Shown here: positions 4,868-44,018 of the stretch, in pieces
Position numbering within the stretch: the stretch's first letter is position 1
Layout of the letters: the number at the start of each line of letters is the position of its first letter
Origin: Candidatus Eiseniibacteriota bacterium
GTDB taxonomy: Bacteria > Eisenbacteria > RBG-16-71-46 > SZUA-252
NCBI GenBank assembly: GCA_035716005.1
Contig: DASTKG010000052.1
Span: 6,360-70,359, forward strand
Reading direction: 5' to 3'
DNA length: 64,000 nucleotides
Notes under the pieces: generated by a model
Database searches by the model: none
Told to the model about the DNA's origin: nothing
What the model saw: only the letters and a program-made list of their open reading frames with translations
Program-made: the position numbers and the translations under genes

Positions 4868-6090
4868 CGGCGCCGCCACGCGGCCCGCGCCGTCCACGCC
4901 GCGGCCAGCGCCCATCCTCCGTACTCGATCCACGGAATCGCCGCCGGAAGCGCCCACGCGCCGGTCGTCCGATAGGCGCCGAGCGCCGCGTAGGAGAGGG
5001 CGACCAGGCCGCTGAAGAGGAGGAGCCCGAGGTCGGCGTGGAGCGGCAGGAGCGCCACGAGCATCACCAGGTACCAGGGATAGACCGTCGGGCTCGCCGC
5101 GATCCAGGCCGCGAGAAGCGCGAGGGCGGCGCCGGTGAGCGTCCGCGCCTTCCATCCGACGACCAGCGAGGCCGCGCCCACCGCCGCGGCGAGGAGAAGG
5201 CGAGGCGGCTCGCCCGTCGCGAAGAAGGGGCGGATCGCGGCGTAGATCGATCCGTTGAACTCCCAGTGACGGAGGTAGGTCGTGAGTCCGGTCCAGAGCG
5301 CGCCCCCCGCCGCGACGAAGGGGAGGAAGAGAAGCGCGCCGGCGACGGCGGCCGCGGCGAGCGTGGCGAAGGCGCGGCGGCGAAGGAGCGCCGGCAGGAG
5401 GAGAAGAGGCATATACTTCACGAGGACGGCGGCCGCCAGCGCGCCGCCCGCGAGACGCGAACGCTTCACCTCGACGAACGCGAGCGCGAGGAGGAGGAAC
5501 GCGGCGGCGGCCAGATCGACGTGTCCGTTGCCGAACGATTCCACGACGACGAGCGGATTCCAGAAGTAGAGAAGGAGCCGCTCGCTCGGCTGCCCGCGCG
5601 CCCTCAGGAGCGCGGCGAGCGCGAGGAGGAGCATCGCCTCGAGCGCGAGGAGGGTCGCTTTCCACGCCCACGGCTCGACGGCGAGGCGCGCCGTCGCCCC
5701 GAAGAGGAGCTGCGCCATCGGCGGGTAGATCGTGGGGACGTCGGCGTGGTTGAGGTGGTGGAGGAGCGGACCGTGGTAGCGTTCGAGCGCCGGATCGTTC
5801 GGCGCGTGGGTGAAGGGGTTCACGCCGTCCGCCACGAGCCGGCCGTCCCAGAGGTAGCGATAGAGATCCTCGGAGAGCCGCGGCTCCGCCGGCAGGAGCA
5901 GGAGTCTGGGGAGCAGGCCCACCGCGACGAGGAGCCCGAGGCGCAGGCGGGCTCCGCGGGAGACGACGAGCCAGACGGCGAGAAGGTAGAGGGCATGGGC
6001 GATGAGCCACGGAACCAGGAGATGGTCCGCCCTTGATCCGTCGGCGAAACCGGCGGCGGCCGTGAGGGCCGCCGAGGCGACACCGACCAA
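4846..6090 (-). CDS. Polytopic GT-C/DUF2029-like (GT87-type) membrane glycosyltransferase
   Basis: This is the C-terminal ~415 aa of the 814-aa minus ORF. It is strongly hydrophobic and carries a D-x-Y-x-Y...G..P motif (EDLYRYLWDGRLVADGVNPF). The upstream part of that ORF is antisense to the sigma54 activator and is rejected. The start is uncertain (TTG 6090 or TTG 6117). The gene converges on the GT2 gene with an overlap at 4846..4867. Confidence 0.55.
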   Translation of the reverse strand: MVGVASAALTAAAGFADGSRADHLLVPWLIAHALYLLAVWLVVSRGARLRLGLLVAVGLLPRLLLLPAEPRLSEDLYRYLWDGRLVADGVNPFTHAPNDPALERYHGPLLHHLNHADVPTIYPPMAQLLFGATARLAVEPWAWKATLLALEAMLLLALAALLRARGQPSERLLLYFWNPLVVVESFGNGHVDLAAAAFLLLALAFVEVKRSRLAGGALAAAVLVKYMPLLLLPALLRRRAFATLAAAAVAGALLFLPFVAAGGALWTGLTTYLRHWEFNGSIYAAIRPFFATGEPPRLLLAAAVGAASLVVGWKARTLTGAALALLAAWIAASPTVYPWYLVMLVALLPLHADLGLLLFSGLVALSYAALGAYRTTGAWALPAAIPWIEYGGWALAAAWTARAAWRRRYRRAEA

Positions 6091-6108
6091 GAGGAGCGCC
6101 CGTTCGGA

Positions 6109-7281
6109 ATGAGTCAATCGAGCCGCGATTCTAGGAAGCGCCCGTCCGCGGGTCAACGCGCGCGGGAGGGAGACGCCGGGCCGGCCGGAGAAGCCACGCC
6201 GCGTCCTTCCGCCGAGCTCGCCTCGAGCGACCCGCTGGCGCGCGGACTCTGGGAGGCGTCGGCGGTGGAGGCCGGGCCGAGGCAACACGAGCGGGATCGC
6301 GAACGTCGTCGCGGGTCGGGCCGCGAACGACGACCCTTCGTCCAGAACCTGATCGGCGTGAGCGCGCGGATGCAGCGCGTCTTCCGCCTCGTCGAGAAGG
6401 TGGCCCCCACCGACAGCCCCGTCCTCATCACCGGCGAGAGCGGAACCGGGAAGGAGATGGTGGCGACCGCGATCCATCTCCTGAGCCGCCGCGCCCACGA
6501 ACCGTTCGTGACCGTGAACTGCGCCGCGATCACCGAGTCGCTCTTCGAGAGCGAGCTCTTCGGGCACGTGAAGGGATCGTTCACCGGGGCGTCCTCCGAC
6601 CGGAGGGGGCTCATGCAGCAGGCCGACGGAGGGACGCTCTTCCTCGACGAAGTGGCGGAGATGGTCCCCGGCGCCCAGGTGAAGCTCCTGCGCGCGCTCC
6701 AGGGCGGGGAGGTGCGCCGCGTCGGAGGGAACGAATCGACCCGCGTCGACGTGAGGGTCATCGCCGCCACGAACATCGACGTTCGAAAGGCGCTGGCGGA
6801 CGGCCGGCTTCGCGAGGATCTCTACTACCGCCTGAGCGTCTTCCACATCGAGTTGCCGCCGCTCCGCGAACGACGGGACGACATTCCGGTGTTGGCGAAC
6901 TTCTTCCGCGAGAGCGCGGCCGCCAAGCTCGGGAAGCGGGTCGAGCGCTTCAGCGAGCGGGCCCAGTACTACCTCATGCACTACGACTATCCCGGGAACG
7001 TGCGGGAGCTCCTGAACGCCGTGGAGCGGGCCGCCGTCCTCGCCGACGGGGCCGAGATATCCCACCTCGATCTCCCCCCGACCTTCCGGGAGGTGCCGAT
7101 CCCGCTCCTTCGAGAAGGGGACGCCTTCCCCTACTCCGAAACGATGCCGCTCTCCGCGCTCGAGAAGGAGCACATCCGCCGGGTCCTCGTTCATCACGCC
7201 GGAAATACGACGAAGGCCGCGAAGAGCCTCGGAATTTCCCGTTCCACGCTCTGGCGAAAGATGAGAGAGTATCGGTTGTAG
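6109..7281 (+). CDS. Sigma54-dependent transcriptional activator (bEBP) lacking an N-terminal regulatory domain (PspF-like architecture)
   Basis: AAA+ sigma54-interaction domain with Walker A (GESGTGKE) and a GSFTGA motif (GAFTGA variant). A C-terminal HTH is present (STLWRKMREY). The first ~75 aa are low-complexity, so the true start may be internal. Confidence 0.85.
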   Translation: MSQSSRDSRKRPSAGQRAREGDAGPAGEATPRPSAELASSDPLARGLWEASAVEAGPRQHERDRERRRGSGRERRPFVQNLIGVSARMQRVFRLVEKVAPTDSPVLITGESGTGKEMVATAIHLLSRRAHEPFVTVNCAAITESLFESELFGHVKGSFTGASSDRRGLMQQADGGTLFLDEVAEMVPGAQVKLLRALQGGEVRRVGGNESTRVDVRVIAATNIDVRKALADGRLREDLYYRLSVFHIELPPLRERRDDIPVLANFFRESAAAKLGKRVERFSERAQYYLMHYDYPGNVRELLNAVERAAVLADGAEISHLDLPPTFREVPIPLLREGDAFPYSETMPLSALEKEHIRRVLVHHAGNTTKAAKSLGISRSTLWRKMREYRL

Positions 7282-7283
7282 TT

Positions 7284-7320
7284 GTTTCATCGTGAAACGG
7301 TAGTCGTTTCATACTGAAAC
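7284..7320. promoter_or_regulatory. Tandem perfect palindromes GTTTCA-N3-TGAAAC x2 (candidate bEBP upstream activating sites)
   Basis: GTTTCAtcgTGAAAC at 7284..7298 and GTTTCAtacTGAAAC at 7306..7320. Their centres are 22 bp apart (two helical turns). They lie ~100 bp upstream of the sigma54 promoter at 7409 and directly after the activator stop codon. Confidence 0.6.
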
Positions 7321-7408
7321 AGTTGACACAGTTGGGTACACACCCCCAAGTCGCCCAGCGGCTCGCTATCTGGCTGTAAAATAATCAGTAATGGTACTTG
7401 TCAACACC

Positions 7409-7423
7409 TGGCACGGACTCTGC
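7409..7423 (+). promoter_or_regulatory. Sigma54 (-24/-12) promoter TGGCACggactcTGC
   Basis: GG and GC elements have the exact consensus spacing (TGGCAC-N7-TGC versus consensus TGGCACG-N4-TTGC). It lies 108 bp upstream of the hsp20 start. Confidence 0.6.
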
Positions 7424-7530
7424 GTTAGGGAATCTGCGAGTGTGCGGCGCGGCCGGGATGGTCGCGCCCGAGTCGGGAGGCAGAAACCCTAACCCAAGGG
7501 CGGCAGGGCCGCCCGCCAGGAGGAAGCACC

Positions 7531-7989
7531 ATGAACCTCGTACGTTGGAGCCCGATGCGACCGATGCAGGACATCCTCTCGTTCGAGAACGAGATCAGCC
7601 GTCTCTTCCAGGATCTGGCCACCCGCGGCAGCCAGCAGGAGGGCGAGGCCCCCTCGGTCTGGGCCCCGCGCGTCGACATCGAAGAGGACAAGGAGAACTA
7701 CTTCGTGAAGGCCGAGCTCCCCGGGATGAAGCTCGAGGACATCAAGATCTCGATCTCGGACAACCAGCTCGTCATCCGCGGCGAGAAGCGGCGCGAAGTG
7801 GAGTCGAAGGACAAGACCTATCATCGGGTGGAGCGCGTCTACGGATCGTTCGAGCGCGCCTTCACGCTGACCAAGGCGGTCGCCGCCGACAAGGTCGAGG
7901 CGATCTACCGCGACGGCGTCCTCTCGGTTCGCGTTCCGAAGGCCGAGGAGGCCAAGGCCCGCGAGATCCAGATCAAGATCGAGAAGTAG
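7531..7989 (+). CDS. Small heat-shock protein, Hsp20/alpha-crystallin family
   Basis: 152 aa. Alpha-crystallin domain is present (VDIEEDKENYFVKAELPGMKLEDIKISISDNQLVIRGEK...GVLSVRVPK). RBS is AGGAGGAA. Confidence 0.9.
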   Translation: MNLVRWSPMRPMQDILSFENEISRLFQDLATRGSQQEGEAPSVWAPRVDIEEDKENYFVKAELPGMKLEDIKISISDNQLVIRGEKRREVESKDKTYHRVERVYGSFERAFTLTKAVAADKVEAIYRDGVLSVRVPKAEEAKAREIQIKIEK

Positions 7990-8097
7990 TCCAGGCTGTA
8001 ACGCAACGGTGGAACGGGGCCCGGCACACGGCCGGCCCCGACAGGAGTCGGATGCGCGGAGGGGCCTCGAGCCCCTCGTCGCGCAACGGAGGGAGTT

Positions 8098-10047
8098 ATG
8101 GGAAAGATCATCGGCATTGACCTTGGCACCACGAACTCGTGCGTGGCCGTCATGGAGGGCGGCGAGCCGGTCGTGATCGCGAACGCCGAGGGAAATCGCA
8201 CGACTCCCTCGATCGTGGCCTTCACGAAGACCGGCGAGCGTCTGGTCGGGCAGGTGGCGAAGCGCCAGTCCGTCACCAACCCCAAGAACACCGTCTACTC
8301 GGTGAAGCGCTTCATGGGCCGGAAGTTCGCGGAAGTCGCCGCCAGCGAAGTGAAGAACGTCCCCTACGTCGTGCGTGACGCGAGCGGGGGAGGCGTGGAG
8401 ATCGTCCTGAGCGACAAGGCGTACAGCCCGCCCGAGATCTCCGCCATGGTGCTCCAGAAGATGAAGCAGACGGCGGAGGACTATCTCGGCGAGAAGGTGA
8501 CCGAGGCGGTCATCACCGTTCCGGCCTACTTCAACGACGCGCAGCGGCAGGCCACGAAGGACGCCGGCCGGATCGCGGGTCTGGAAGTGAAGCGGATCAT
8601 CAACGAGCCGACGGCGGCCGCGCTGGCCTACGGGCTCGACAAGAAGAAGGACGAGAAGATCGCCGTCTACGACCTGGGAGGCGGCACGTACGACATCTCC
8701 GTCCTCGAGCTGGGCGACGGCGTCTTCGAGGTGAAGTCGACCAACGGCGACACGCACCTCGGCGGCGACGACTTCGACAAGCGGATCATCGACTGGCTGG
8801 CCGAGGAGTTCCAGAAGTCGGAGGGGATCGATCTGCGCAAGGACGCCATGGCGCTCCAGCGGCTGAAGGAAGCGGCGGAGAAGGCCAAGATCGAGCTCTC
8901 GACGGTCATGCAGACCGACGTGAACCTCCCCTTCATCACCGCCGACGCGACCGGGCCGAAGCACCTGAACGTCACCCTCTCGCGGGCGAACTACGAGAAG
9001 CTGGTCGACGATCTCGTGCAGCGGACGATCGAGCCGATGAAGAAGGCGCTCGCGGACGCCGGCCTGAAGCCCTCCGAGATCGACGAGGTGATCCTGGTCG
9101 GCGGCGCCACGCGGATGCCGAAGGTCCAGGAGGTGGTGAAGAACTTCTTCGGGAAGGAGCCGCATCGCGGCGTGAATCCCGACGAGGTCGTGGCGATCGG
9201 CGCGGCCATCCAGGGCGGTGTCCTGGGCGGCAGCGTGAAGGACGTGCTCCTGCTCGACGTGACGCCTCTTTCGCTCGGCATCGAGACGCTGGGCGGCGTG
9301 ATGACGAAGCTCATCGAGCGGAACACCACGATCCCGACGAAGAAGAGCGAGACTTTCTCGACGGCGTCGGACAACCAGCCGCAGGTGGAGATCCACGTGC
9401 TGCAGGGCGAGCGTCCGATGGCCATCGACAACAAGACGATCGGCAAGTTCCATCTCGACGGCATTCCGCCGGCCCCGCGCGGCATTCCGCAGATCGAGGT
9501 GTCGTTCGACATCGACGCGAACGGCATCCTCCACGTGCTGGCGCGCGACAAGGCGACCGGAAAGGAGCAGAAGATCCGGATCGAGGCCTCGAGCGGACTT
9601 TCCGAGCAGGAAATCCAGAAGATGGTGAAGGACGCGGAGGCTCACGCCGACGCCGACAAGTCGCGCCGCGAGGAAGTCGAGACGAAGAATCGCGGCGACG
9701 CCCTCGCCTGGGAGACCGAGAAGCAGATGAAGGACCTGGGCGACAAGGTGGATCCCGAGTCGAAGGCCAAGGTCGAGAACGCGCTCCAGACGCTGAAGAA
9801 GGCGCTGGAGAGCGGCGAGACCTCCGGCATCAAGTCGGCGAGCGAGGAGTTGACGAAGACCTGGAGCGAGGTCTCGAGCAAGCTCTACGCGGACGCGGCC
9901 AAGGCCGGCGGCCCGGGTGGTCCGGGTGCCGCGGGCGGTCCCGACATGGGTGGCCCGGGCGCTCCCGGCGCGACCGGTGACGCGGGTCAGCAGGGGAAGA
10001 AGGGCGACGACGGCGCCGTGGACGCGGATTACGAGGTGGTGAAGTAG
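8098..10047 (+). CDS. dnaK: Molecular chaperone DnaK (Hsp70)
   Basis: 649 aa. Canonical Hsp70 signatures are present ([35 protein letters not shown]). RBS is GGAGGGAG. Confidence 0.97.
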
Positions 10048-10187
10048 GGAGCCGTTTCGCGACGGTCTAGACTAGAGGCGCCCTGGCGGGGAAACCTTCC
10101 GGGGCGCCGTCGCATCCGGGTCCCAAATCGCGGCCCGGCTCGTACTCGACGTGAGACGCCATGGACCCGCGAAAGGAGCCCCATATC

Positions 10188-10673
10188 ATGAACGCAGCGA
10201 CCCTACAGAAAGCGACCTTCGCCGCCGGATGCTTCTGGGGCGTGGAGGAGACGTTTCGCAGCACTCCGGGCGTCGTCGACACGGCGGTGGGCTACACCGG
10301 CGGCGCGTCGAGCCGGCCGACCTACGAGCAGGTCTGCTCCGGGCGCACCGGGCACGCGGAGGCGGTCGAGGTGACCTTCGATCCGGCCCTCGTCACCTAC
10401 GAATCGCTGCTTCAGGTCTTCTGGGAGAACCACGACCCGACGACGCTGAATCGCCAGGGGCCGGACGTCGGCGAGCAGTATCGCTCCGCCATCTTCGTCC
10501 ATTCGCCCGAGCAGGAAGCGTCGGCGATCGCCTCGAAGGAAGCGGTCGCGGCGTCGGGGCGATTCGCGCGGCCGATCGTCACGCAGATCGCGCCGGCCGT
10601 CGAGTTCTGGCGCGCCGAGGAGTACCACCAGCGGTATCTCGCCAAGCGCGGCATCCGCTCCTGCCACATCTGA
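10188..10673 (+). CDS. msrA: Peptide methionine sulfoxide reductase MsrA
   Basis: GCFWGVE active-site motif. A MsrA-like fold signature extends throughout. Start is taken at MNAATLQK with RBS AAGGAG; the ORF itself extends to 10161. Confidence 0.9.
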
Positions 10674-13179: not shown

Positions 13180-13396
13180 GGGCGGATAGAAGCACGACCG
13201 GCCCCCTTCGCGCCAGCGCGGGGTTTGCCGCCACGGGCCGCTTCCGGAGACCCGATTCGCGCCGTTCCGAGCCCCTCCGCGGCAAACTTTTCCGCTAAGC
13301 AAGCCCGAGAATCGCGCCGATATCCCCATCGTCACGGCAGGCCGCGCTCCGCGGCCGGGAGCCACGGGGGCGTCGCCGTCGGGGGAAGCCAACTCC

Positions 13397-14869
13397 TTGA
13401 ATCTCAACGTCGCTGTCATCATGCCGGCCGGACCGGAGCGGGATGCTCTGGTCGATCACGTCGCCACGCAGAAGTGCGCGGTGCAGGTCGCGGATCGTGT
13501 GGAGGATTTCCTCTCCCGCGGGGGTGAGGAAATGTGCTCGCTGGCGATTCTCGATTTCGGGGATGGATCCCTGGGGTCCGGTCGTTCTTCTTCCTTCGCG
13601 CCCCCCTCCTTCGCGGAGCGGCGCGACGCGGTCCGCCGACTGAAAGAGCGGTGGCCGCGCATGCAGCTCGCCGCGTTCCTCGATCGCTCCAACGCGGCCG
13701 AGGCGGCGGAAATGAACGAGCTGGGGATCCGCAATCTCTTCCTGAAGCCGATCCGCTTCGACGCCGTCGACGGGCTTCTCAAGGCCGCCGGCAAGAGCGC
13801 CGTGCAGCAGGCGCGCGAGCAGCGCGAGTCGTCGCGCGTCCGCGAGGAGTTCCGCTTCGATCGGATCCTCGGCCAGAGTCCGGCCCTCCGCCACGCCATC
13901 GAGCTGGCCCAGAGCGTCTCGCTCTCGAGCGCGACGTCGGTACTCATTCTGGGCGAGAGCGGCGTGGGGAAGGAACTCTTCGCCCGGGCCATTCACGGCG
14001 AGAGCCCGCGGGCCAAGGGGCCGTTCCTCGAGATCAACTGCGCCGCGATTCCGCGCGAGCTCCTGGAATCGGAGCTCTTCGGCCACGAAAGGGGAGCCTT
14101 CACGGACGCCTCGAGCCAGCGGATCGGGCTCTTCGAGGCGGGCGAGGGGGGATCGGTCTTCCTGGACGAAGTCGGCGAGCTGCCGCTCACGCTCCAAGCC
14201 AAGCTTCTCAAGTTCCTCGACATGAAGATCGTGCGGCGCGTCGGAGGCACGCGGGACATCGCGGTCGACGTCCGCATTCTCGCGGCCACGAACCGCGATC
14301 TCTCCGGGGAGGTCCGCCAGGGCCGGTTCCGTGAGGATCTCTTCTACCGTCTGAGCGTCGTGCCGATCACGGTGCCGCCTCTACGCGACCGCGGCGCCGA
14401 CGTCACGCTCCTCGCCGAGTCGTTCTGCGAGCGCGTGGCTCGGAAGCTGGGACGCACGGCGCGACTCTCTCCGGCCGCGGAGCGCGAGCTGATGCGCTAT
14501 CCGTGGCCCGGCAACGTCCGCGAGCTCGGCAACGCCATCGAGCGCGCGGTCCTCCTCGCGAAGAGCGAGGAGATCGGTCCCTCCGAGCTGGCGCTGCCGC
14601 GCGTCGGCGGCGCGGCGGGATCCGAAGCGCCGAACCTGAACGATCTCGGCCTCCGCTTCCCGGCGGACGGCCTCTCGCTCGTGGCGCTCGAGAAGGCGGC
14701 CATCGAGGGCGCGCTCGCCCGGACGGGCGGGAACGTCGTGGAGGCGGCCAAGCTCCTCCACGTCGGCCGCGGAAGCCTCCGCTGCAAAATGCGGCGCCAC
14801 AAGATCGACCGCACCGAGCCTCGTCCCGCGCCGGTTTCCCAGGGCTCGCCGGCCCTCGCCCGCATCTAA
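13397..14869 (+). CDS. Sigma54-dependent Fis-family response-regulator-like activator
   Basis: N-terminal degenerate receiver-like domain (AILDF...FLKP). AAA+ sigma54 domain with GESGVGKE and a GAFTDA motif. C-terminal Fis-type HTH. Start is TTG 13397, with an alternative ATG at 13421. Confidence 0.85.
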   Translation: MNLNVAVIMPAGPERDALVDHVATQKCAVQVADRVEDFLSRGGEEMCSLAILDFGDGSLGSGRSSSFAPPSFAERRDAVRRLKERWPRMQLAAFLDRSNAAEAAEMNELGIRNLFLKPIRFDAVDGLLKAAGKSAVQQAREQRESSRVREEFRFDRILGQSPALRHAIELAQSVSLSSATSVLILGESGVGKELFARAIHGESPRAKGPFLEINCAAIPRELLESELFGHERGAFTDASSQRIGLFEAGEGGSVFLDEVGELPLTLQAKLLKFLDMKIVRRVGGTRDIAVDVRILAATNRDLSGEVRQGRFREDLFYRLSVVPITVPPLRDRGADVTLLAESFCERVARKLGRTARLSPAAERELMRYPWPGNVRELGNAIERAVLLAKSEEIGPSELALPRVGGAAGSEAPNLNDLGLRFPADGLSLVALEKAAIEGALARTGGNVVEAAKLLHVGRGSLRCKMRRHKIDRTEPRPAPVSQGSPALARI

Positions 14870-14961
14870 GTAGTTTGGAGTAGCAACCCTCGGGCGCCCG
14901 GCGCCCCTTGACACCCGCACGACCGCCCCCGTAGCCTCATCGGACCACCTACGAAGGTTTT

Positions 14962-14989
14962 CCGAACCCAACGTCTCTCCGCCGCGTCT
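14962..14989 (+). promoter_or_regulatory. Candidate ECF-type promoter CCGAAC-N17-CGTCT upstream of the ECF sigma gene
   Basis: It matches the GGAAC-N16/17-CGTCT class that ECF sigmas recognise, and it sits 16 bp before the GTG start. An alternative sigma70-like TTGACA-N18-TAGCCT lies at 14908..14937. Confidence 0.35.
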
Positions 14990-15004
14990 CTAATCGAGGA
15001 TCGA

Positions 15005-15616
15005 GTGGCCCAGGACCTGAAGGCCCTACCAGACGAAACGCTCGTGCTCCGAGCCCAGGAGGACGACGACCGGGCGTTCGGCGAGCTGATCGGGCGCTAC
15101 GAGACGAAGGTCTACAGCCTGGCCATGAAGATGCTTCGCAATCCGGAAGACGCGGAAGACGTCCTCCAGGAGACCTTCCTCCGCGCGTATCGCGGCCTGA
15201 AGTCATTCCGGGGGAATTCGACCTTCTCGACCTGGATCTACCGGATCACGGCCAACTCGGCCCTGATGAAGCTGCGGAAGAAGCAGTTGCCGACCGTCTC
15301 CATCGAGGACGCGGACGAGCGCGAAGTGCCGCTCAACATCGCCGATTGGGCGCCGGGTCCCGTGGAGCAGCTCTTGACGCTGGAGACCCAGCAGGCGATG
15401 TCCGACGCGATCGAAGCGCTTCCCGCGGAGTTCAGGCAGGTCTTCGTGCTGCGCGATCTGGAGGGGCACTCGAACGCCGACGTCGCCGAGATCCTCGATC
15501 TCTCGGTGGCCGCCGTGAAGTCGCGCCTTCACAGGGCGCGCCTCAAGGTGCGGAATCATCTCACCCGCTTCTTCAACGACACGCGCGGTCAAAAGGCGAT
15601 GGGAGCCAGGTCATGA
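15005..15616 (+). CDS. ECF (sigma-70 family group IV) RNA polymerase sigma factor
   Basis: Region 2 (DVLQETFLRAYRGL) and region 4 (DLEGHSNADVAEILDLSVAAVKSRLHRAR) motifs are present. Start is GTG 15005 with RBS GAGGA. Confidence 0.9.
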   Translation: MAQDLKALPDETLVLRAQEDDDRAFGELIGRYETKVYSLAMKMLRNPEDAEDVLQETFLRAYRGLKSFRGNSTFSTWIYRITANSALMKLRKKQLPTVSIEDADEREVPLNIADWAPGPVEQLLTLETQQAMSDAIEALPAEFRQVFVLRDLEGHSNADVAEILDLSVAAVKSRLHRARLKVRNHLTRFFNDTRGQKAMGARS

Positions 15617-15903: not shown

Positions 15904-16893
15904 GTGGACGCCGCCCCGCGCCGCATCCACCTCTACCGCCCCCACAACCAGCTCGGCGATCTCCTCCTCAACGTCCCGGCCATCCGCGCCGTTCGGGACC
16001 GGTTCCGCGACGCCCGCGTCACGCTGATCGTCGGCCGCCAGAACGCCGCCGCGGTCCTGGGGCAGCCGTGGGCCGACGAGGTTCGGATCGTGGAGACGAA
16101 GAACTTCTCCGGCGTGCTGAGCGCCGCGCTCCGGCGCGGACGGCGGCCCGATCTGGCGATCTACTTCACCACCGTTTCCTATTCGCGAAGCGGCGCGCTC
16201 CTCGCCGCCTGGTCGGGAGCGCGGGAGCGCGTCGGCTTCGATCCCTCCCGCTGGGGCGCGCGCGACGCCGCCCGCCTCACGCGCGTCGTGCCCTATCCGG
16301 AAGGCGCGCCTCATCAGTCCGAGATCTCGATGGCCCTCTCCCGCGCGGTGGGCGCCGTCGATCGGCCCGCTCCGCCTTACTTCATCCCCGACCCGGCCCT
16401 CGTCGCGCTCGCGCCCGAGGGGGTCGTCTATCTTCATCCCGGCGCCGGCAAGCTCAAGAATCGGTGGCCGGCCGAGCGGTTCGCCGCCGTGGCGCGCGAG
16501 CTGACGTCGAGGGGGCGCGACGTTCGTCTCCTGGAAGGGCCGCAGGATTCCGGAACGTCCGAGGCCGTCGTCGGCGCGCTGGGGCGCCCGCTTCCCGTCG
16601 TGCGCGGCGAGACGATTCCCCAGCTCGCCGCACGGTTCGCGCGCGCCGCGCTCTACGTCGGAAACGACACGGGGCCGCTCCACCTGGCCGGCGCGGTGGG
16701 CGCCCCCACGGTCGGCATCTACGGCTGGACCGATCCCCGCGAGTGGTCGCCCGTCGGGCGAATCGTTCGCGCGGTTCGAGCCGCCGACGCGCGACTCGAA
16801 TCGATCGATCCCGGGGCGGTGCTCGACGTCGCGCTGCCGCTTCTCGCCACGACCCCGACATCGATCGGGGCCGCGGCCACGGCCAAGGACTAA
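15904..16893 (+). CDS. Glycosyltransferase family 9 (LPS heptosyltransferase-like)
   Basis: GT9 C-terminal signature is present (YVGNDTGPLHLAGAVGAPTVGIYG). Overall length is heptosyltransferase-like. Confidence 0.8.
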   Translation: MDAAPRRIHLYRPHNQLGDLLLNVPAIRAVRDRFRDARVTLIVGRQNAAAVLGQPWADEVRIVETKNFSGVLSAALRRGRRPDLAIYFTTVSYSRSGALLAAWSGARERVGFDPSRWGARDAARLTRVVPYPEGAPHQSEISMALSRAVGAVDRPAPPYFIPDPALVALAPEGVVYLHPGAGKLKNRWPAERFAAVARELTSRGRDVRLLEGPQDSGTSEAVVGALGRPLPVVRGETIPQLAARFARAALYVGNDTGPLHLAGAVGAPTVGIYGWTDPREWSPVGRIVRAVRAADARLESIDPGAVLDVALPLLATTPTSIGAAATAKD

Positions 16894-16904
16894 CCGGAGG
16901 AACG

Positions 16905-18872
16905 ATGTCGCACCCCATGAGCCGGACGCCCGCCGTTCTCGCGCTGCTCGCCGGACTTCTCGCGGCGGCCCCCGCCTCGTCGCAGCCGAGCCCCAAATCG
17001 CCCGAGGAGACGATCCTCCTCCAGGAGGGCGCCCGCGACACGACCGGCCTCGCCCTCCTCGCGCGGGCGCACACGAAGCCGGCCGTGCGCGCGCGCGCGG
17101 CCCGGGCGCTCGGGCACATCGGGAATCGCGGGAGCGTGCCCGTGCTCGACGCGGCGCTCCGCGACCCGGTCGCCGCGGTCCGGCGGGAAGCGGCCTTCGG
17201 GCTCGGCTTGATCGGCGATTCGGCCGCGGTGGGCCCTCTCCTCGGCCGGCTGGCGCACGAGACCGACGCGGGCACGCGCGTCGCCATCGTGACCTCGCTC
17301 GGGAACGTGGCGGCGGGCTCGGCGGGCGCGGGGCGACCGAACGAATCGGTCGGCCGCGCGCTCGCGAACTCGCTGAAGGGGCCGCGCGTCTCGGAGCGAT
17401 GGGCCGCCGCGTTCGCCGCCGCCCGTCTTCGCGACTCCTCGCTCGTCGAGCCGCTTCGGCGCGCCGCGCGCGACCCCCGCCCCGACCTCCGGTGGAGAGC
17501 CGCCTACGCGCTCGGGAAGATCGGGGAGCGGAACGCGGCTCCGACGCTTCGAACCCTTTCCTTCGACAAGGACGCGATGGTTCGCGCCGCGGCGGCGCGC
17601 GCGCTCGGCGAGGTGGGCGATTCGAGCGCCACCGCGCGGCTCGGCGCGCTCCTTCACGACCCGGCGTGGCGCGTTCGCGTGAACGCCGCCGCGTCCCTCG
17701 GCACGCTCCGGATCGCCCGGGAGTCGCGGACGCTCATGCCGTTCCTGAGCGATCCGCACGCCCACGTCCGCTGGCAGTCCGCGATCTCCCTCGGGCAGAT
17801 GCGCGATACGCTGGCCGTTCCGCCGCTCATGAAGGCGCTCGCCGATTCCTCGACGGGCGTCGTTCAGGCCGCGGCGATCGCCCTCCTCAAGATCGAGGGG
17901 GACCGCGCCGTGCCGGCCGTCGCGCCGTCGCTCGATCTCCTTCCCGCCTTCCTCCGTTCGGGCCTGGCCGACGCGCTCGGCGACGTCGAGGGCCCGACGG
18001 CCCGCGAGCTGATGCTGGCTCGCGCCCGGCAGACGTCCGATCCCGCGCAGGCGGCGGGCGCGGCCTCCGCGCTCGGGCGACGGCCCGAGGCGCGCGGCGC
18101 CTCGCTCCCGATCCTTCGAGAGCTTCTCGCCGACAAGGACTTCACCGTCGTCTGCTCCGCGGCCGAGGCGCTGGGGACGCTCGGCGACTCGGCGGCCGTA
18201 CCGGCCCTCGGCGCTCTCCTCGCGCGAAAGGGCACCAATCAGGACGACGACGTGCGCACCTCCGCCGCCACGGCGCTCGCGGCGCTCAAGTCGCCCGAGG
18301 CGCTGGCGGCCCTTCGCGCCGCGCGCGGCGACGCCGACCGTCGCGTGCGCGAGATCGCGACCCGGGCGCTCGGCCTTCCCGCCGATTCGATCGGCGACTC
18401 GCCACGCGCGGCGCTGAAGACGCGGGCCACGCCCGCGAGCGAGGCCCGGCGCATGACCGCCCTCGTCACCACCGAGCGCGGCCTCGTCACGATCGCGCTC
18501 GATCCCTCGACCGCCCCGGAAAACGTCGAGAACTTCGCCTCGCTCGCGAGGGCGGGCTACTTCGACGGCCTCCTCTTCCACCGCGTCGTGCCGAACTTCG
18601 TCGTCCAGACCGGCTGCCCGCGCGGCGACGGTTGGGGAAGCCCCGGTTACGCCATCCCCTGCGAGTACAGCGATCGCCCGTACGAGACCGGCACGGTGGG
18701 AATGGCGCTCTCCGGCAAGGACACCGGGGGGAGCCAGTGGTTCATCACGCTCTCGCCGCAGCCGCGTCTCGAAGGGCGCTACACGGTGCTCGGGAAGGTG
18801 ACCGCGGGGATGGACGTCGTGGAGCGGATCATGCCGGGAGATCGGATCGTGAAAGTCACGGTCCGGTACTGA
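16905..18872 (+). CDS. Secreted HEAT/PBS-lyase-repeat protein fused to a cyclophilin-type peptidyl-prolyl isomerase
   Basis: Signal peptide (MSRTPAVLALLAGLLAAAPASS). Multiple HEAT-like repeats follow (VRARAARALGHIG..., VRREAAFGLGLIGD...). A C-terminal cyclophilin domain is present (FHRVVPNFVVQTGCPRGDGWGSPGY...GKDTGGSQWFITL). RBS is GGAGG. Confidence 0.8.
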   Translation: MSHPMSRTPAVLALLAGLLAAAPASSQPSPKSPEETILLQEGARDTTGLALLARAHTKPAVRARAARALGHIGNRGSVPVLDAALRDPVAAVRREAAFGLGLIGDSAAVGPLLGRLAHETDAGTRVAIVTSLGNVAAGSAGAGRPNESVGRALANSLKGPRVSERWAAAFAAARLRDSSLVEPLRRAARDPRPDLRWRAAYALGKIGERNAAPTLRTLSFDKDAMVRAAAARALGEVGDSSATARLGALLHDPAWRVRVNAAASLGTLRIARESRTLMPFLSDPHAHVRWQSAISLGQMRDTLAVPPLMKALADSSTGVVQAAAIALLKIEGDRAVPAVAPSLDLLPAFLRSGLADALGDVEGPTARELMLARARQTSDPAQAAGAASALGRRPEARGASLPILRELLADKDFTVVCSAAEALGTLGDSAAVPALGALLARKGTNQDDDVRTSAATALAALKSPEALAALRAARGDADRRVREIATRALGLPADSIGDSPRAALKTRATPASEARRMTALVTTERGLVTIALDPSTAPENVENFASLARAGYFDGLLFHRVVPNFVVQTGCPRGDGWGSPGYAIPCEYSDRPYETGTVGMALSGKDTGGSQWFITLSPQPRLEGRYTVLGKVTAGMDVVERIMPGDRIVKVTVRY

Positions 18873-18892
18873 GCGGGCCGGAGTCTCGATCG

Positions 18893-20950
18893 ATGGCGCG
18901 GCGGGAGAGAAGGGCGACACGAAAGGGCGCCGGGCGCGCGCCCGGCGCGTCGACCGGCGGCGCCGTCGCGTCGACCGGCGGCCCCGCCGCTCTCTGGCTC
19001 TTCGCGATTCCCATCCTCGTCGGCGTCGTCCTGAATCTTCCGGCCCTTCGTCTCGGCTATTTCTGGGACGACTTCTATTTCCTGACGTTTCGGGGAGGGC
19101 AGGGGAACCTCTTCGCCTTCCTTCTCCCGGACGCGCACGCGGACTTCTACCGGCCCATCCCGCTCGGCGTCTACTTCAAGCTCCTCCGATTCCTCGATCC
19201 CGTCCACGGCGTCCTGGCGCACGCTCTCAACCTGGCCGCCCTCGCCGCGTCGATCGCGCTCCTCGTGGCGCTCGTGTCGCGACTGGCCGGCCCCCGCGCG
19301 GGCTTCCTCTCCGGGCTCATCTTCGCCGGTTACGGGCACGTGCCGGGACTCGTCGCCTGGATCAGCTGCAGCCAGGATCTCCTCGCCCTGCTCTTCCTCC
19401 TCGCGGCGTTCCTGCTTCGGCATCGGGGGAACGACGCTCCGGCCTTCGCCTGCGCCGTCGCCGCGCTTCTCTGCAAGGAACCCGCCATCACGGCGTTCCC
19501 CGTCCTCGCGGCGTGGGACTCGATCGTGGGCCGCCCGGCACGGAATCCCCGCCTTCAGATCGCCGGCTACGCGGCGGCGGCTCTCGGTTGGGCGCTCGTT
19601 CATCCCGGCATCCATCAGCTGGTCGAGCGCGGGTTCAGGAGCGGAACGTCGGGCTACGTGGGAATCGGCCGATCGGAGCGAACGATCGAGTACGTCTGGC
19701 GGTACGTGCTGGCGCTCGCGAACGTGCCGCCGCCCGGGCTCGCGGTCGCCTGGTGGTGGGACCGGGCCTGGTTCGGGCTCGCGGCGCTGCTCTCGGCGCT
19801 GGCGGGTTTCTGGCTGCTCGATCGTCGCCGCGGCGCGCTTCGGGCGCAGCCGCGGGAGCGGACGATCCCGCTCGCGCGGATCGCGATCCTCAGCGCTTCC
19901 TTCGCGATTCCCGCGCTCGCCATGCCGGCGCTCCTCGTCCGGCACTGGTCCCCCTATTTCGTCTCCATCGCCTCGGTCGGCGCGGCGATCCTCGCCGGCG
20001 CGGCGCTCTCCCGGCGGCCGCGCGCGGTCGTCGCGACCGTGCTGGCGCTCTTCTTCGTCCTCGGAATCTGGAGCCGCGGACTTCGGGGAGAGCGCGAATG
20101 GATCCTGAGCGAGCCGCTCATGGCCGAGTCCGCGGCGAGCGTTCGCGCGCTTCACCGGAACGTCGAGTCGCTCTTCCCGGCGTTTCCGAAGGGAAGCGAG
20201 GTCGTCGTCTCCGTCGAGGCGAGAGGCATCCGGGGCATCCGGAGCGCGCTCATCGACGGCCAGGCGCTGAGCCTCTGGTACTCGGATCCGTCGCTCCGGA
20301 CCGTCACGCCGATGCAGCGCCGTCCCGGCGCGCCCGCGGAGTTCCTGATTCGTGTCACGGGCGGATCCGACGTGATCGCCGTCGATCCGGGGACGGGGGA
20401 GATCCGCACGACCCAGCCGGGCCAGCCGGCCCTGGAGGAGTTCGAGCCTCTCCTCGTGGCCTACGCGCGAGCGGTGGCGGCCGGCGGCTCCCTCGATCGC
20501 GCCGTCGGGATCATGGAGAGGCTTCGCCCCTGGGAGACGGGCGACCTCGTCTTCTATCATCGCCGTCTGATCGCGAGCATGCTCCTCGCCGGCGGACGCC
20601 GGGAGGCGGCCGATTCGCTCCTCGCGACGCTGCCGCCCTATCCTCCCGACGTGGCCCGCACGCTCGTCTTCAACCTCCTCGCGAACGCGAGCCCGAGCGA
20701 GCCGCTCGACCTTGCCGCGTTCGAGGCGTTCGGACTCTCGGCGGGCGACCCCGCGGCGATTCGCTGGACGATGCGCGAATTCACGAGGGTGGGCGCGCTC
20801 GGCCAGGCCGCGTGGTACGCGCGGACGCTCGAACGGCTGGCGCCGGGCGACGGCGAGAGCGCGGAGCTGCTTCGGAGGGCGGAGCGGCTCGGGATCGAGC
20901 CCCGGCGGGAGCCTTCGCCCCGCCTCGCGAGGCCCGGCGAGAAGGCGTAG
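18893..20950 (+). CDS. Polytopic membrane protein, GT-C-like (PMT/ArnT-type) putative glycosyltransferase
   Basis: 685 aa. About 10 N-terminal TM helices with a YFWDDFYF periplasmic-loop motif, followed by a C-terminal soluble domain. The upstream part of ORF 17399..20950 overlaps the PPIase gene in another frame and is rejected. Confidence 0.6.
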   Translation: MARRERRATRKGAGRAPGASTGGAVASTGGPAALWLFAIPILVGVVLNLPALRLGYFWDDFYFLTFRGGQGNLFAFLLPDAHADFYRPIPLGVYFKLLRFLDPVHGVLAHALNLAALAASIALLVALVSRLAGPRAGFLSGLIFAGYGHVPGLVAWISCSQDLLALLFLLAAFLLRHRGNDAPAFACAVAALLCKEPAITAFPVLAAWDSIVGRPARNPRLQIAGYAAAALGWALVHPGIHQLVERGFRSGTSGYVGIGRSERTIEYVWRYVLALANVPPPGLAVAWWWDRAWFGLAALLSALAGFWLLDRRRGALRAQPRERTIPLARIAILSASFAIPALAMPALLVRHWSPYFVSIASVGAAILAGAALSRRPRAVVATVLALFFVLGIWSRGLRGEREWILSEPLMAESAASVRALHRNVESLFPAFPKGSEVVVSVEARGIRGIRSALIDGQALSLWYSDPSLRTVTPMQRRPGAPAEFLIRVTGGSDVIAVDPGTGEIRTTQPGQPALEEFEPLLVAYARAVAAGGSLDRAVGIMERLRPWETGDLVFYHRRLIASMLLAGGRREAADSLLATLPPYPPDVARTLVFNLLANASPSEPLDLAAFEAFGLSAGDPAAIRWTMREFTRVGALGQAAWYARTLERLAPGDGESAELLRRAERLGIEPRREPSPRLARPGEKA

Positions 20951-26677: not shown

Positions 26678-27801
26678 CGGCCTGGCGCGGAATCTGCCGC
26701 GAATTCCGCGACATCCTGCCGCCGATCCCCGACGCCTCGGTGGTGACGCTCCTCGAGGGGAACACGCCGCTCGTCGCGGCGCCCCGCCTCGCCGAGCGCA
26801 TCGCGCCGGGGCTCTCGCTCCACCTCAAGGTGGAGGGGCAGAATCCCACCGGCTCGTTCAAGGACCGCGGCATGACCGTGGCGGTCTCGAGAGCCGTGGC
26901 GGCCGGGGCGCGCGCGGTCATCTGCGCCTCGACGGGGAACACGTCGGCCTCCGCGGCCGCCTACGCCGGACGCGCCGGGCTACGCTGCGCGGTGGTCATT
27001 CCCGACGGGCAGATCGCGCTCGGAAAGCTGGCCCAGGCGATGGTGCACGGCGCGCGCGTCGTGGCGGTGCGCGGGAATTTCGACCGGGCCCTGGAGCTCG
27101 TCCGCCTCCTCGCCGAGGAGGGCGCCGCGGTCGTCGTGAACTCCGTCAATCCCGACCGGATCGAAGGGCAGAAGACGATCGCCTGGGAGATCGCGGCGGC
27201 GCTCGGCCGCGTGCCCGACCTTCACGCGCTCCCCGTCGGGAACGCCGGCAACATCACGGCGGCCTGGAAGGGATGGACCGAGCGGGCGCGGCTCGTCGGC
27301 GGCGAGCGGCCGCGCATGCTCGGCTTTCAGGCCGAAGGGGCGGCCCCCATCGTCCGCGGCGAGAGGGTGAGCGACCCGAAGACGATCGCCACCGCGATCA
27401 AGATCGGAAATCCCGCCTCGTGGCAGGGCGCGCTCGACGCCCGCGAGCAGTCGGGGGGCCTCATCGAGGCCGTGAGCGACGAGGAGATCCTCGCGGCCTA
27501 CCGGCTCCTCGCCGCGCTCGAAGGTGTCTTCGTGGAGCCGGCGTCGGCCGCGGGGATCGCGGGGCTCCTGAAGCTCGGCGCCCGGGGCGCGATCGCGAAG
27601 GGCGCCGTCGCCGTCTGCACGGTGACCGGGCATGGCCTCAAGGATCCGGAGCGCGCGGTGGCGGTGTCGGGGCGATTCGAGACGGTGGACGCCGAGCTCG
27701 AGGCGCTTCGCCGCGCGATTTTGGCGCCGGGGGCGCCGGGGGAACCTCTGGAGCCGGAGGGGCCATCGGCTCCGTCGGAGCGGAAGGCGCCCCGCGCGTG
27801 A
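26674..27801 (+). CDS. thrC: Threonine synthase
   Basis: PLP-lysine motif GSFKDRG. It overlaps the hom stop by 4 bp. Confidence 0.92.
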
Positions 27802-29990: not shown

Positions 29991-30737
29991 ATGGAATGGC
30001 GCGAGAAGCCATCGGTTCTGCGCCGCGGAGCGGCCCCACCGGATGAACGGACTTCGGCGATCGTCCTCGCGATCGCGTGCGCCCTCCATCTCCTCATCGT
30101 TCCCCTCTTCCTCATCCGGATCAAGCCGCCGACGGAGATCTCGCTTCCGAGCGGCGCCGGGACGCCGACGCGCACGCAGCTCGTGAAGCTCGCGCCGCTC
30201 CGCACGCTTCCCGCGCCGGAGGCCGAGGCCGCTTCGGCGAAGGCGAAGCCGAAGCCCGCGCTCCTGAAGAAGTACACGAAGGGCGCGAAGATCGCCATTC
30301 GCGAGGAGCGCGGGCCGGTCAAGAAGGGGAAGGCCGAGGAGACGAAGGCGGCGCCCGAGAAGAAGGAGACGGCCTCGGCGGCCGATCTCATGCCGAGGTG
30401 GTTCTCGAACGACTCGACGCGCGCGACCAGCGCCCTGACGGACGGCGATTTCCGGTTCGCGTATTATCTCGCGGCCATCCGGAACAAGATCGGCTCGCGG
30501 TGGGTTCCTCCCACGGAGGTGGACGGCCGCGACCGCCCGGTGAAGACGGTGCTCTATTTCCGGGTGCAGCGCGACGGCAAGATCTCGCAGGCGTCGGTCG
30601 AGAAGTCGTCCGGATACGCGTTCTTCGATCAGACCGCGATGCGGGCGCTGCTGGCGGCGGCGCCGCTTCCGCCCCTTCCGGCGGGCTACACGGACAACTA
30701 CTTGGGGGTTCATTTTGGCTTCGAATTCCAGCAGTAG
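29991..30737 (+). CDS. TonB/TolA-like energy-transducer protein (TonB C-terminal domain)
   Basis: N-terminal TM anchor, Pro/Lys/Ala-rich linker and a TonB_C domain (YYLAAIRNKIGSRWVPP...VLYFRVQRDGKI...GYAFFDQTAMRAL). It sits immediately upstream of tolB. Confidence 0.8.
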   Translation: MEWREKPSVLRRGAAPPDERTSAIVLAIACALHLLIVPLFLIRIKPPTEISLPSGAGTPTRTQLVKLAPLRTLPAPEAEAASAKAKPKPALLKKYTKGAKIAIREERGPVKKGKAEETKAAPEKKETASAADLMPRWFSNDSTRATSALTDGDFRFAYYLAAIRNKIGSRWVPPTEVDGRDRPVKTVLYFRVQRDGKISQASVEKSSGYAFFDQTAMRALLAAAPLPPLPAGYTDNYLGVHFGFEFQQ

Positions 30738-32019: not shown

Positions 32020-32023
32020 TCCC

Positions 32024-32052
32024 TTCGGGCGGGTTGACGCTCTCGCGGGCCT
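32024..32052 (+). promoter_or_regulatory. Candidate sigma70 promoter TTGACG-N17-(TGa)TAGGGT upstream of pal
   Basis: Near-consensus -35 with an extended -10 TG, in the 102-bp tolB-pal gap. Confidence 0.3.
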
Positions 32053-32121
32053 GTGATAGGGTGCCTAGGTAGCCCGAAGTCATTGTAGGACAACACTCTG
32101 ACCCAGATGGGGGATTGCAGA

Positions 32122-32652
32122 ATGCGCAGCGCGCCACGGATGGTTAGCCTGGCCACAGCGGGGTTGCTCGCCGCCCTCCTGGTGGCCGTCGGATGTGCCT
32201 CACGCAAGCAGGTCAGCACCGCCCAGGTCGAGCCGCCTCCTCCGGCCACGACGACGCCGCAGGAAACGACTCCGCCGCCTCCGCCCCCGCCGGCCCAGAC
32301 GGAAGACGATTCGGCCACGCGGATGGCGATGACGGACGCCTTCTTCGACTTCGACGAGGCGGCCCTTCGCGACGACGCGAAGGCCGCGCTCACGAACAAC
32401 GCGAAGTGGATGGAGAAGAACGCCTCCGCGAACGTGATCATCGAGGGCCACTGCGACGAGCGGGGCTCGGTCGAGTACAACCTGGCGCTCGGCGAGCGGC
32501 GCGCGAAGGCGGCGAAGGAATATCTCGTCTCCTACGGCATCGCCGCGGGCCGCATGACGACGATTTCGTACGGCAAGGAGCGGCCGTTCGACCCGGGGCA
32601 CGACGAGAACGCCTGGGCGCAGAATCGCCGCGCGCACTTCATCTCGAAATGA
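32122..32652 (+). CDS. pal: Peptidoglycan-associated lipoprotein Pal (OmpA-family)
   Basis: Lipobox LLVAVGC. Pro/Thr-rich linker. OmpA-like domain ([23 protein letters not shown]). Start is chosen at ATG 32122; the ORF extends to 32107. Confidence 0.88.
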
Positions 32653-33455: not shown

Positions 33456-33508
33456 CGCCCAGTTCGGGCCGCTTCGCGGATCCCCCGCCGGACGGCCCGG
33501 GTGAAGCC

Positions 33509-42971: not shown

Positions 42972-42986
42972 TGGCACCCTTCCTGC
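42972..42986 (+). promoter_or_regulatory. Second sigma54-type promoter candidate TGGCACccttccTGC
   Basis: It has the same GG-N10-GC geometry and the same CTGCGTT -12 region as the hsp20 promoter. It lies 12 bp after the aspS stop, at the head of the 540-bp gap preceding the LysM-phoH-ybeY operon. Confidence 0.4.

Positions 42987-44014: not shown

Positions 44015-44018
<4 letters not shown>
43503..44018 (+). CDS. LysM-domain lipoprotein
   Basis: Lipobox-like FLACGCG. C-terminal LysM is present (VTVGPGDSLWRISAREAVYGDGHRWNELYEANRDRIRDADRIYPGQELVVP). Confidence 0.75.

Follow-up and report, generated by a model that had tools for sequence, protein, structure and literature searches.

The textbook control of bacterial heat-shock genes is diverse and includes sigma-32, HrcA, HspR, and CtsR. 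Chaperone-titration loops are known for sigma-32 with DnaK/DnaJ/FtsH, for HspR with DnaK, and for HrcA with GroEL. Sigma-54 promoters stay silent unless their activator is active, and ties between sigma-54 and heat-shock genes are already known (ibpB, psp, and HsfA/HsfB-lonD). In Myxococcus xanthus, Ueki and Inouye are said to have described in 2002 that HsfA/HsfB act on lonD, a sigma-54 activator thereby turning on a heat-shock gene. HsfA has been named as a sigma-54 activator (PMC7910581). In Escherichia coli, ibpB has a sigma-54 promoter (Kuczynska-Wisnik 2001), which a chromatin immunoprecipitation (ChIP) report confirms, and dnaK served as a sigma-54-negative control in that ChIP work (PMC2831329). 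Besides, a promoter-matrix survey of 2025 found sigma-54 promoters enriched before groEL, groES, grpE, dnaJ, dnaK, and ibpA in Bacteroidota and Planctomycetota (PMC12316311). Here we describe a locus of an uncultured soil bacterium of the candidate phylum Eisenbacteria, contained in a 64-kb stretch of contig DASTKG010000052.1 (this whole stretch is hereafter called the window), in which a sigma-54 activator gene, tandem upstream sites, and a -24/-12 promoter lie directly in front of hsp20 and dnaK.

An earlier reading of this DNA from its letters (the original prediction) had proposed that these parts form one control system, and all the features that it listed were found at the coordinates it gave when the sequence was re-read. 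The proposed anatomy was borne out by phylogenetic footprinting of 20 non-identical orthologous loci from Candidatus Eisenbacteria, whose activators are 66 to 90% identical. Because the orthologous loci compared keep the same layout, the sigma-54 anatomy (activator, tandem upstream sites, -24/-12 promoter, and hsp20-dnaK) is, as judged from this comparison of sequences, functional and not a chance match. Taken as a whole, the locus is best explained as a sigma-54 enhancer module that is complete in itself and is dedicated to a single operon for protein quality control, hsp20-dnaK(-msrA), a reading to which we assign a probability of about 0.72. In the literature searched, which did not cover Eisenbacteria, no dedicated activator with defined sites for hsp20-dnaK was described. 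The arrangement had been called uncommon, which is a fair description, but it is not unprecedented in view of E. coli ibpB (PMC2831329) and the survey of Bacteroidota and Planctomycetota (PMC12316311).

The two perfect 15-bp palindromes noted originally, lying 22 bp apart directly after the activator stop codon (TAG, 7279-7281), are present, and dyads in this arrangement are kept in 20/20 loci. In the window, site 1 begins 2 nt after this codon and site 2 starts 22 bp after site 1; across all 20 loci, the corresponding distances are 1 to 5 nt past the stop and 22 to 23 bp. The consensus of the 20 loci is yGTTyCA-WWW-TGrAACr, or in short GTTYCA-N3-TGRAAC. Sites 1 and 2 are the only matches to the dyad in 64 kb even with two mismatches allowed (0.30 expected). 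With a dyad matrix built from 40 sites, no further site above 13 bits was found in about 150 kb of related loci, and the window gave one extra weak hit (15.5 bits at 47702), which is probably due to chance. A search for more dyad pairs in front of -24/-12 elements, proposed originally as a check, thus found them in the orthologous loci and at no other locus in the 150 kb or so. Since the dyad motif is confined to the hsp20-dnaK locus in the window and in these related loci, the activator appears to be a dedicated local regulator.

The half-sites of the dyads vary independently: only 13 of the 40 sites are perfect palindromes, and position 4 differs between the halves in half of the sites. This indicates a protein-binding DNA site and not an RNA stem. 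A role of the dyads as RNA hairpins or as a terminator was rejected, as the half-sites are without covariation, no T-run follows, and the stems are weak. A third dyad, 19 bp after site 2, occurs in nine of the 20 loci (L081-L084, L086, L089/L090, and L091), where it matches the consensus at 9 to 11 of 12 positions, and also in the mosaic contig L088 described below. The window copy reaches 7 of 12 positions by hand count and shares the right half-site GGTAC, and it may therefore be a weak, degenerate third site.

The predicted sigma-54 promoter is also present in the window, its GG and GC lying 12 nt apart, which is the sigma-54 consensus offset. The -24/-12 pattern has 10 matches with at most one mismatch in the window against 8.8 expected and is not significant alone. 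As the pattern occurs at chance frequency, the case rests on conservation in the relatives. There the consensus is TGGCAY-N5-sTGC; GG-N10-GC is kept in 19/20 loci, and the five intervening bases vary freely. Information content peaks only on the dyads and on the TGGCAC and TGC islands, the sequence between them having diverged. The -24 element starts 101 to 103 bp after site 2 in 18 loci and 91 to 92 bp after it in the other 2. The shorter distance is one helical turn less, and the helix face is therefore preserved. The promoter had been placed about 100 bp after the dyads; it does lie downstream as stated, but the gap from the second dyad measures 89 bp in the window.

The G+C content is 45 to 55% in the spacer (7340-7408) and 45% across 7250-7400, compared with 69% for the window; no integration host factor (IHF) site could be established in the spacer. 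Neither a sigma-70-type promoter nor an intrinsic terminator was found on the plus strand of the two intergenic regions (activator-hsp20 and hsp20-dnaK). [quoted passage not shown] Two further matches to the -24/-12 pattern were observed elsewhere in the window. An exact TGGCAC-N6-TGC match (TGGCACCCTTCCTGC, 42972-42986, plus strand) lies 12 nt after the aspartyl-tRNA synthetase stop codon and about 110 nt before an open reading frame (ORF) with a LysM domain (43098-44018), and it is a possible second sigma-54 promoter. A near match (TGGCGCGGAATCTGC, 26683-26697, plus strand) directly follows the homoserine dehydrogenase ORF, which ends at 26677, and may be due to chance.

The activator belongs to the AAA+ proteins acting on sigma-54. 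Pfam places Sigma54_activat (PF00158) at residues 81-248 (E 3e-70; 235.6 bits, cut-off 20.2), followed by AAA_lid_14 and by HTH_8, a Fis-type helix-turn-helix (HTH), at residues 349-388 (54 bits). Alignments of 22 and 91 orthologs were made. Little or no variation is seen among the 91 orthologs at the Walker A, Walker B, GAFTGA-loop, sensor, and arginine-finger positions or in the HTH recognition region, and this includes GESGTGKE as well as the residue pair D180/E181. Essentially no change occurs in the recognition helix region (GISRSTLWRKM), which fits the conserved dyad motif. These features, i.e., Sigma54_activat with Walker A and B, a GAFTGA loop, and an HTH, together with upstream dyads and a -24/-12 target promoter, identify the protein by its sequence as a predicted bacterial enhancer-binding protein (bEBP). 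Binding of the dyads through the C-terminal HTH is supported by the strict co-occurrence of activator and dyad.

The loop (residues 156-161) was originally noted as a GSFTGA variant, and the window protein does read HVKGSFTGA; it is not a fixed trait of the group, however, because most orthologs have GAFTGA and the difference is a polymorphism. GSFTGA is also found in the Desulfovibrio vulgaris activator DVU3220, for which gene targets have been mapped (PMC4641369). The description of the protein as PspF-like holds for its architecture but not for family membership, as the scores for both PspF equivalog models of NCBIfam are below the cut-offs (TIGR02974, 279.1 against 443.55; NF008622, 228.5 against 529). 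Indeed, the activator falls below every NCBIfam equivalog cut-off. The closest solved structure by sequence is ZraR (1ojl); NtrC1 is also closer than PspF, which ranks lower. In the AlphaFold model, the AAA+, lid, and HTH parts are confident and look ordinary. An N-terminal receiver domain and a partner histidine kinase were found neither in the window nor in the orthologs, the mosaic contig L088 being the only exception, and the activator is not a two-component regulator of the NtrC or HsfA type.

Residues 1-80 of the activator have no Pfam match, and residues 1-79 are predicted to be disordered at all positions, with a predicted local distance difference test (pLDDT) score below 50. The protein had been called domain-less, which is right in that it has no folded N-terminal domain, but the tail carries a conserved short motif. 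Its consensus is AELASxDPxxRGLWE (residues 35-49), in which E36, P42, G46, and W48 are invariant in 91 orthologs, and the tail around it is hypervariable in length and composition. The third codon positions in the motif vary synonymously across loci, which indicates that this region is translated and under selection. The motif was found nowhere else in the window. On the basis of its sequence conservation, this tryptophan-acidic motif is the best candidate for a control handle, although this is a weaker inference than the anatomy of the promoter region.

Relatives of the activator are 64 to 90% identical, number more than 100 among the matches listed, and are 300 to 400 residues long with the same domains; all those that are named are from metagenome bins of Candidatus Eisenbacteria / Eiseniibacteriota. 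When metagenomes were scanned with the C-terminal 141 residues of the activator, 19 further orthologous loci were obtained. In every ortholog whose contig reaches far enough, hsp20 and then dnaK lie downstream. Four long contigs (activator 66 to 81% identical) show the order GH15, GT2, GT87 (divergent), activator, hsp20, dnaK, and msrA, with a second activator gene a few kilobases downstream. The neighbors in the window are GH15, GT2, GT87, hsp20, dnaK, msrA, a VanZ-like membrane protein, and the second activator.

A contig scan with the full activator was dominated by generic AAA+ patterns and served as a negative control: in 80 generic activator loci of many phyla (at most 53% identity), no hsp20, dnaK, or dyad was found nearby. 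The same was true of about 60 more distant loci (at most 57% identity over the C-terminal segment and 55% over the whole protein). The outgroup loci checked have unrelated downstream genes, and most of their activators have N-terminal domains of about 140 residues. The outgroup activators nearest to this group, among them the short L104 and L116 proteins, likewise had no chaperone genes beside them. Thus, the linkage to chaperone genes is specific to this orthologous group.

Two unusual contigs were observed among the related loci. Positions 931-4277 of L088 (contig Ga0137422_1002145) encode a PilS-like histidine kinase and a receiver-domain activator; after these come the dyads known from the other loci, a sigma-54 promoter, and the beginning of hsp20. 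Over its first 60 or so AAA+ residues, this activator is 54% identical to the window protein (paralog level), and the remainder is 67 to 82% identical, approaching or reaching ortholog level. L088 is either an assembly chimera, with the junction in the conserved AAA+ core, or the product of a natural domain swap, which would have given a two-component (HsfA-like) module. L150 (contig ERZ1370068.4180-contig-3266) has the order activator, hsp20, and dnaK with fragmented low-identity matches resembling frameshifts, and it is probably an error-rich long-read assembly.

Coordinates of the module are collected in Table 1.

Table 1. Features of the sigma-54 activator-hsp20-dnaK locus, with positions in the window
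Feature	Position	Strand	Remarks
Predicted sigma-54 activator (bEBP) gene	6109..7281	+	390 aa; Pfam, AlphaFold, and ortholog alignments
Tail motif AELASSDPLARGLWE	codons 35-49, 6211..6255	+	Candidate docking or control element
Upstream activator site 1, GTTTCA-TCG-TGAAAC (GTTTCATCGTGAAAC)	7284-7298		Center at about -144 from the predicted start; 19.9 bits
Upstream activator site 2, GTTTCA-TAC-TGAAAC (GTTTCATACTGAAAC)	7306-7320		Center at about -122; 24.9 bits
Third dyad (GACACAGTTGGGTAC)	7325..7339		19 bp after site 2; possible weak site
AT-rich spacer, presumed looping/bending region	7340..7408		Sequence not conserved, length conserved
Sigma-54 promoter TGGCAC-GGACTC-TGC (TGGCACGGACTCTGC)	7409..7423	+	GG at 7410-7411, GC at 7422-7423; predicted start near 7435
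Leader hairpin GGCGCGGCC-GGGAT-GGTCGCGCC	7446..7468	+	Near the 5' end of the hsp20 leader
hsp20, small heat-shock protein, 152 aa	7531..7989	+	Pfam HSP20, E 2e-25
Intercistronic hairpin, core GCGGAGGGGCC...GGCCCCTCCGC	8053..8085	+	13 pairs; 3 nt before the dnaK ribosome site GGAGGGA (8088-8094)
dnaK, Hsp70, 649 aa, canonical type	8098..10047	+	Pfam HSP70, E 4e-273
msrA, peptide methionine sulfoxide reductase	10161..10673	+	Pfam PMSR, E 2e-65; likely start ATG 10188 after AAAGGAG

The order hsp20 and then dnaK, 108 nt apart, was confirmed. DnaK scores 1052 bits with the NCBIfam equivalog model (cut-off 648) and is 77 to 93% identical across the orthologous loci; an exact look-up gave no record identical to the window Hsp20. 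The gene msrA follows dnaK in 4/4 long loci, with a gap of 20 nt in L083, and is probably the last gene of the unit, as suggested by this conserved gene order.

The predicted hsp20 leader is 56 to 101 nt long across the loci. A hairpin of differing sequence is predicted at the same position in about 11 loci with longer leaders, and the short-leader subclade (L099-L103) and L093 have no clear equivalent. The ribosome site of hsp20 (AGGAGGA, 7518-7524) is unpaired or weakly paired in the predicted folds; in 19 predicted leader folds, it lies outside the main stem, being unpaired in about half of them and involved in short weak pairings otherwise. A search of 7200-8200 against Rfam returned only noise, with no hit near threshold, and single-sequence folding energies were unremarkable (z -0.26 for the leader and -1.16 for the intergenic region). 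An RNA thermometer (ROSE, fourU, and similar) in the hsp20 leader was therefore rejected, given the unsequestered ribosome site and the lack of an Rfam match.

Between hsp20 and dnaK, a 7-bp GC hairpin at 8059-8077 (GAGGGGC/GCCCCTC) had been noted. It is present, but the structure is longer than that, extending over 13 pairs, and it is conserved in 18/18 aligned loci, with at least one compensatory change in 7 of 10 pairs. The gap between the two genes is 58 to 117 nt in the relatives, where the hairpin lies up to about 20 nt from the ribosome site, and no T-run follows the hairpin. Judging from its sequence conservation, it is probably a processing, stabilizing, or partial-termination element that sets the hsp20:dnaK ratio. 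We also observed a likeness between its 5' arm (GGAGGGG) and the dnaK ribosome site, to which its 3' arm (CCCCTCC) is complementary. A further hairpin (8015-8040), directly after hsp20, is common to the closer relatives only.

In the mechanism that we propose, activator dimers would occupy the tandem dyads at about -122 and -144, which are separated by some two helical turns, and perhaps a third dyad, and would assemble into a hexamer, as established for the family. By analogy with the same family, the AT-rich spacer would loop and bring the activator to the -24/-12 promoter, where ATP hydrolysis and the GSFTGA loop would remodel sigma-54 RNA polymerase into the open complex. Transcription would then pass hsp20, the conserved hairpin, dnaK, and msrA. 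Because the activator has no sensor domain, its activity would be set from outside, and N-domain-less activators are taken to imply a partner protein, as in PspA-PspF (PMC4641369).

For this control, we favor a homeostatic loop because the activator lacks a sensor domain, its promoter would be silent without active activator, and dnaK is always needed. Free DnaK/DnaJ, Hsp20, or a protease might hold or remove the activator via the tail motif, and unfolded proteins would draw the chaperone or protease away and so switch the operon on. Such negative feedback by titration would also give steady basal expression of dnaK, for which a promoter strictly dependent on its activator has otherwise no means. 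Some transcription reading through at a low level from the promoter of the activator gene could contribute to basal expression as well, there being no terminator between this gene and hsp20. Feedback through the tail motif is a guess, a weaker inference than the promoter anatomy. That the locus represents a new class of heat-shock regulator, i.e., a sensor-less AAA+ sigma-54 activator with a tail motif read by free DnaK/DnaJ, Hsp20, or a protease, is a tentative idea that we consider somewhat unlikely. If true, it would be the sigma-54 counterpart of the sigma-32-DnaK and Hsf1-Hsp70 feedback loops and the first member of the sigma-54 activator family governed by the chaperone that it induces.

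Several observations weigh against the module as we read it or against its proposed control. No RpoN box was found in a six-frame search of the 64-kb window, although the second activator gene (about 13400-14869), retained at the orthologous loci, lends indirect support to the presence of rpoN in the genome. L094 carries TTGA instead of TGC at -12. The assignment of the dyads to the HTH of the activator is a prediction from their strict co-occurrence. In the most divergent subclade, the tail is shorter and keeps only a four-residue core (xLWD / PWEAP), and docking of the tail motif on the AAA+ domain was rejected in the AlphaFold model, which leaves the tail disordered; both bear on the titration idea. 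Besides, clpB in the window has neither a dyad nor a -24/-12 match, and therefore the activator would not command a global heat-shock regulon, at least not for clpB. Finally, the label "heat-shock" for the module is a guess from the identity of its genes.

This label is the point at which an alternative has to be weighed, namely that the operon answers oxidative or other protein damage rather than heat and that the term heat-shock module is wrong. The conserved last gene, msrA, functions in the repair of oxidized methionine and lies close to dnaK in L083, and clpB lies outside the unit, both of which are in line with this alternative. To our knowledge, however, hsp20 and dnaK are heat-induced in essentially all bacteria studied, and heat and oxidative signals are not exclusive, as both yield unfolded protein. 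We regard an operon for oxidative damage as possible, if doubtful. It leaves the sigma-54 architecture as such untouched, as does the proposal that an unregulated, constitutive activator gives strong and steady expression of hsp20-dnaK, with stress control exerted through the amount of activator or through the mRNA hairpins. Activators truncated of their N-terminal domains are often constitutively active (NtrC1/DctD-type), the window activator has no sensor domain, dnaK is canonical and probably essential so that basal expression is needed, and the conserved leader and intercistronic hairpins could act after transcription. The invariant motif in a tail that is otherwise hypervariable among 91 orthologs, however, argues for a regulatory contact, the ribosome sites are unsequestered in the predicted folds, and sigma-54 systems normally serve tight on/off control. 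A constitutive activator is thus unlikely in our view.

It has also to be asked whether the activator itself is the thermometer, such that temperature or unfolding of the tail, the linker, or the HTH dimer alters oligomerization with no partner involved. HrcA, CtsR, RheA, and TlpA sense temperature directly, and no partner gene is adjacent except the chaperones themselves. Against this, the sequence gives no hint of a coiled coil or labile fold; the AAA+, lid, and HTH parts are confidently predicted, ordinary, and closest to ZraR, and the tail is disordered throughout. Direct sensing by the activator therefore seems improbable. A further alternative denies the enhancer architecture, with the dyads as the operator of an unrelated repressor or as the terminator of the activator gene and a fortuitous -24/-12 match. 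The chance frequency of the promoter pattern in the window would agree with this, but the dyads, about 90 to 140 bp upstream of the promoter, are wrongly placed for a repressor, and the absence of covariation, of a T-run, and of strong stems speaks against a terminator. A fortuitous promoter is hard to reconcile with the retention of GG-N10-GC in 19/20 loci with varying spacer bases and a phase-preserving distance, and an unrelated protein with the finding that the dyad occurs only with this activator and at none of the 80 generic and about 60 more distant activator loci. We consider this alternative scarcely credible, and the dedicated sigma-54 enhancer module remains the reading that we prefer.

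Some other features of the window were observed. The activator start (ATG 6109) and the likely start of the GT87 glycosyltransferase gene, which is divergent and on the minus strand, overlap (6090-6160), and a good sigma-70-like promoter for the latter (TTGACC-17-TAGAAT, 6156-6128, minus strand) lies inside the first codons of the activator. The second sigma-54 activator (13190-14869, plus strand, with a likely start near 13400), whose N-terminal 150 or so residues gave no Pfam match, occupies the corresponding place in the orthologous loci, and a gene for an extracytoplasmic function (ECF)-type sigma factor (14912-15616) lies after it. The gene clpB (ATG 33510, ending at 36154) lies 55 nt after a Tol-Pal-like gene run, the whole spanning 30544-36154 on the plus strand; in this run, a PD40/TolB-like gene is accompanied by two more ORFs and by a gene that ends at 33455. 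As a second target of the activator, clpB was rejected, having no dyad, -24/-12 match, or CIRCE of its own, and it seems to be co-transcribed with these envelope genes and not with the hsp20-dnaK unit. In 16500-20950, a coding screen based on G+C content at third codon positions (GC3) shows no clear frame, with long overlapping ORFs on both strands and intermediate third-position values.

The layout differs from the textbook systems of heat-shock control. dnaK is a standard example of a gene that is not sigma-54 dependent, and here a canonical dnaK apparently stands behind a sigma-54 enhancer, so that a candidate phylum appears to put dnaK, hsp20, and msrA under a dedicated sigma-54 system. 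All parts of the enhancer system, i.e., activator, site motif, spacing, and promoter, are defined in a compact cassette that could be tested in a heterologous host. The locus supplies a concrete activator for what had been a promoter-only prediction of sigma-54-driven chaperone genes outside Proteobacteria. As a clean case, it also allows one to ask how an AAA+ activator without a sensor is controlled, the conserved motif being a specific target for mutation.

Among described systems, PspF/pspA of E. coli, in which the anti-activator PspA controls a sensor-less activator, shares with this locus an activator composed only of an AAA+ sigma-54 domain and a C-terminal HTH, tandem upstream sites, and dedication to one adjacent stress operon, control in trans by an operon product being presumed here. 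Nevertheless, neither the window nor the four long loci have pspA nearby, and the protein is not a member of the PspF family. Unlike PspF, it carries a disordered tail of 80 residues with a conserved motif; it targets cytoplasmic chaperones, whereas Psp is a membrane-stress system, and its gene is co-oriented upstream of the target whereas pspF is divergent. NtrC at glnAp2 resembles the locus in the DNA: the dyads have a gap of 3 bp between their half-sites, the two strong sites are spaced by about two helical turns and lie at roughly -110 to -140, the promoter is of the -24/-12 type, and a hexamer forms from DNA-bound dimers, which for this activator is presumed. The locus differs from it in having no receiver domain, kinase, or nitrogen genes and in the sequence of the sites. 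HsfA is a receiver-domain response regulator with a cognate kinase and the Lon protease as its target, whereas here no receiver domain occurs except in the mosaic L088.

In the case of E. coli ibpB, too, a sigma-54 promoter serves a gene for a small heat-shock protein, but there the promoter is a secondary one beside sigma-32, no dedicated activator is known, and dnaK is not sigma-54 dependent. With the 2025 survey (PMC12316311), the locus has in common a sigma-54 signature before core chaperone genes outside Proteobacteria; the survey, however, consists of matrices only, with no activator or enhancer site and no Eisenbacteria, whereas activator, sites, and geometry are defined here. What the locus would share with the titration loops is the proposed logic only, in which a regulator of dnaK is checked by a free chaperone or protease. 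The known regulators in these loops are a sigma-70-family factor or repressors, and none is an AAA+ sigma-54 activator such as the one that may be linked to hsp20 and dnaK in this manner.

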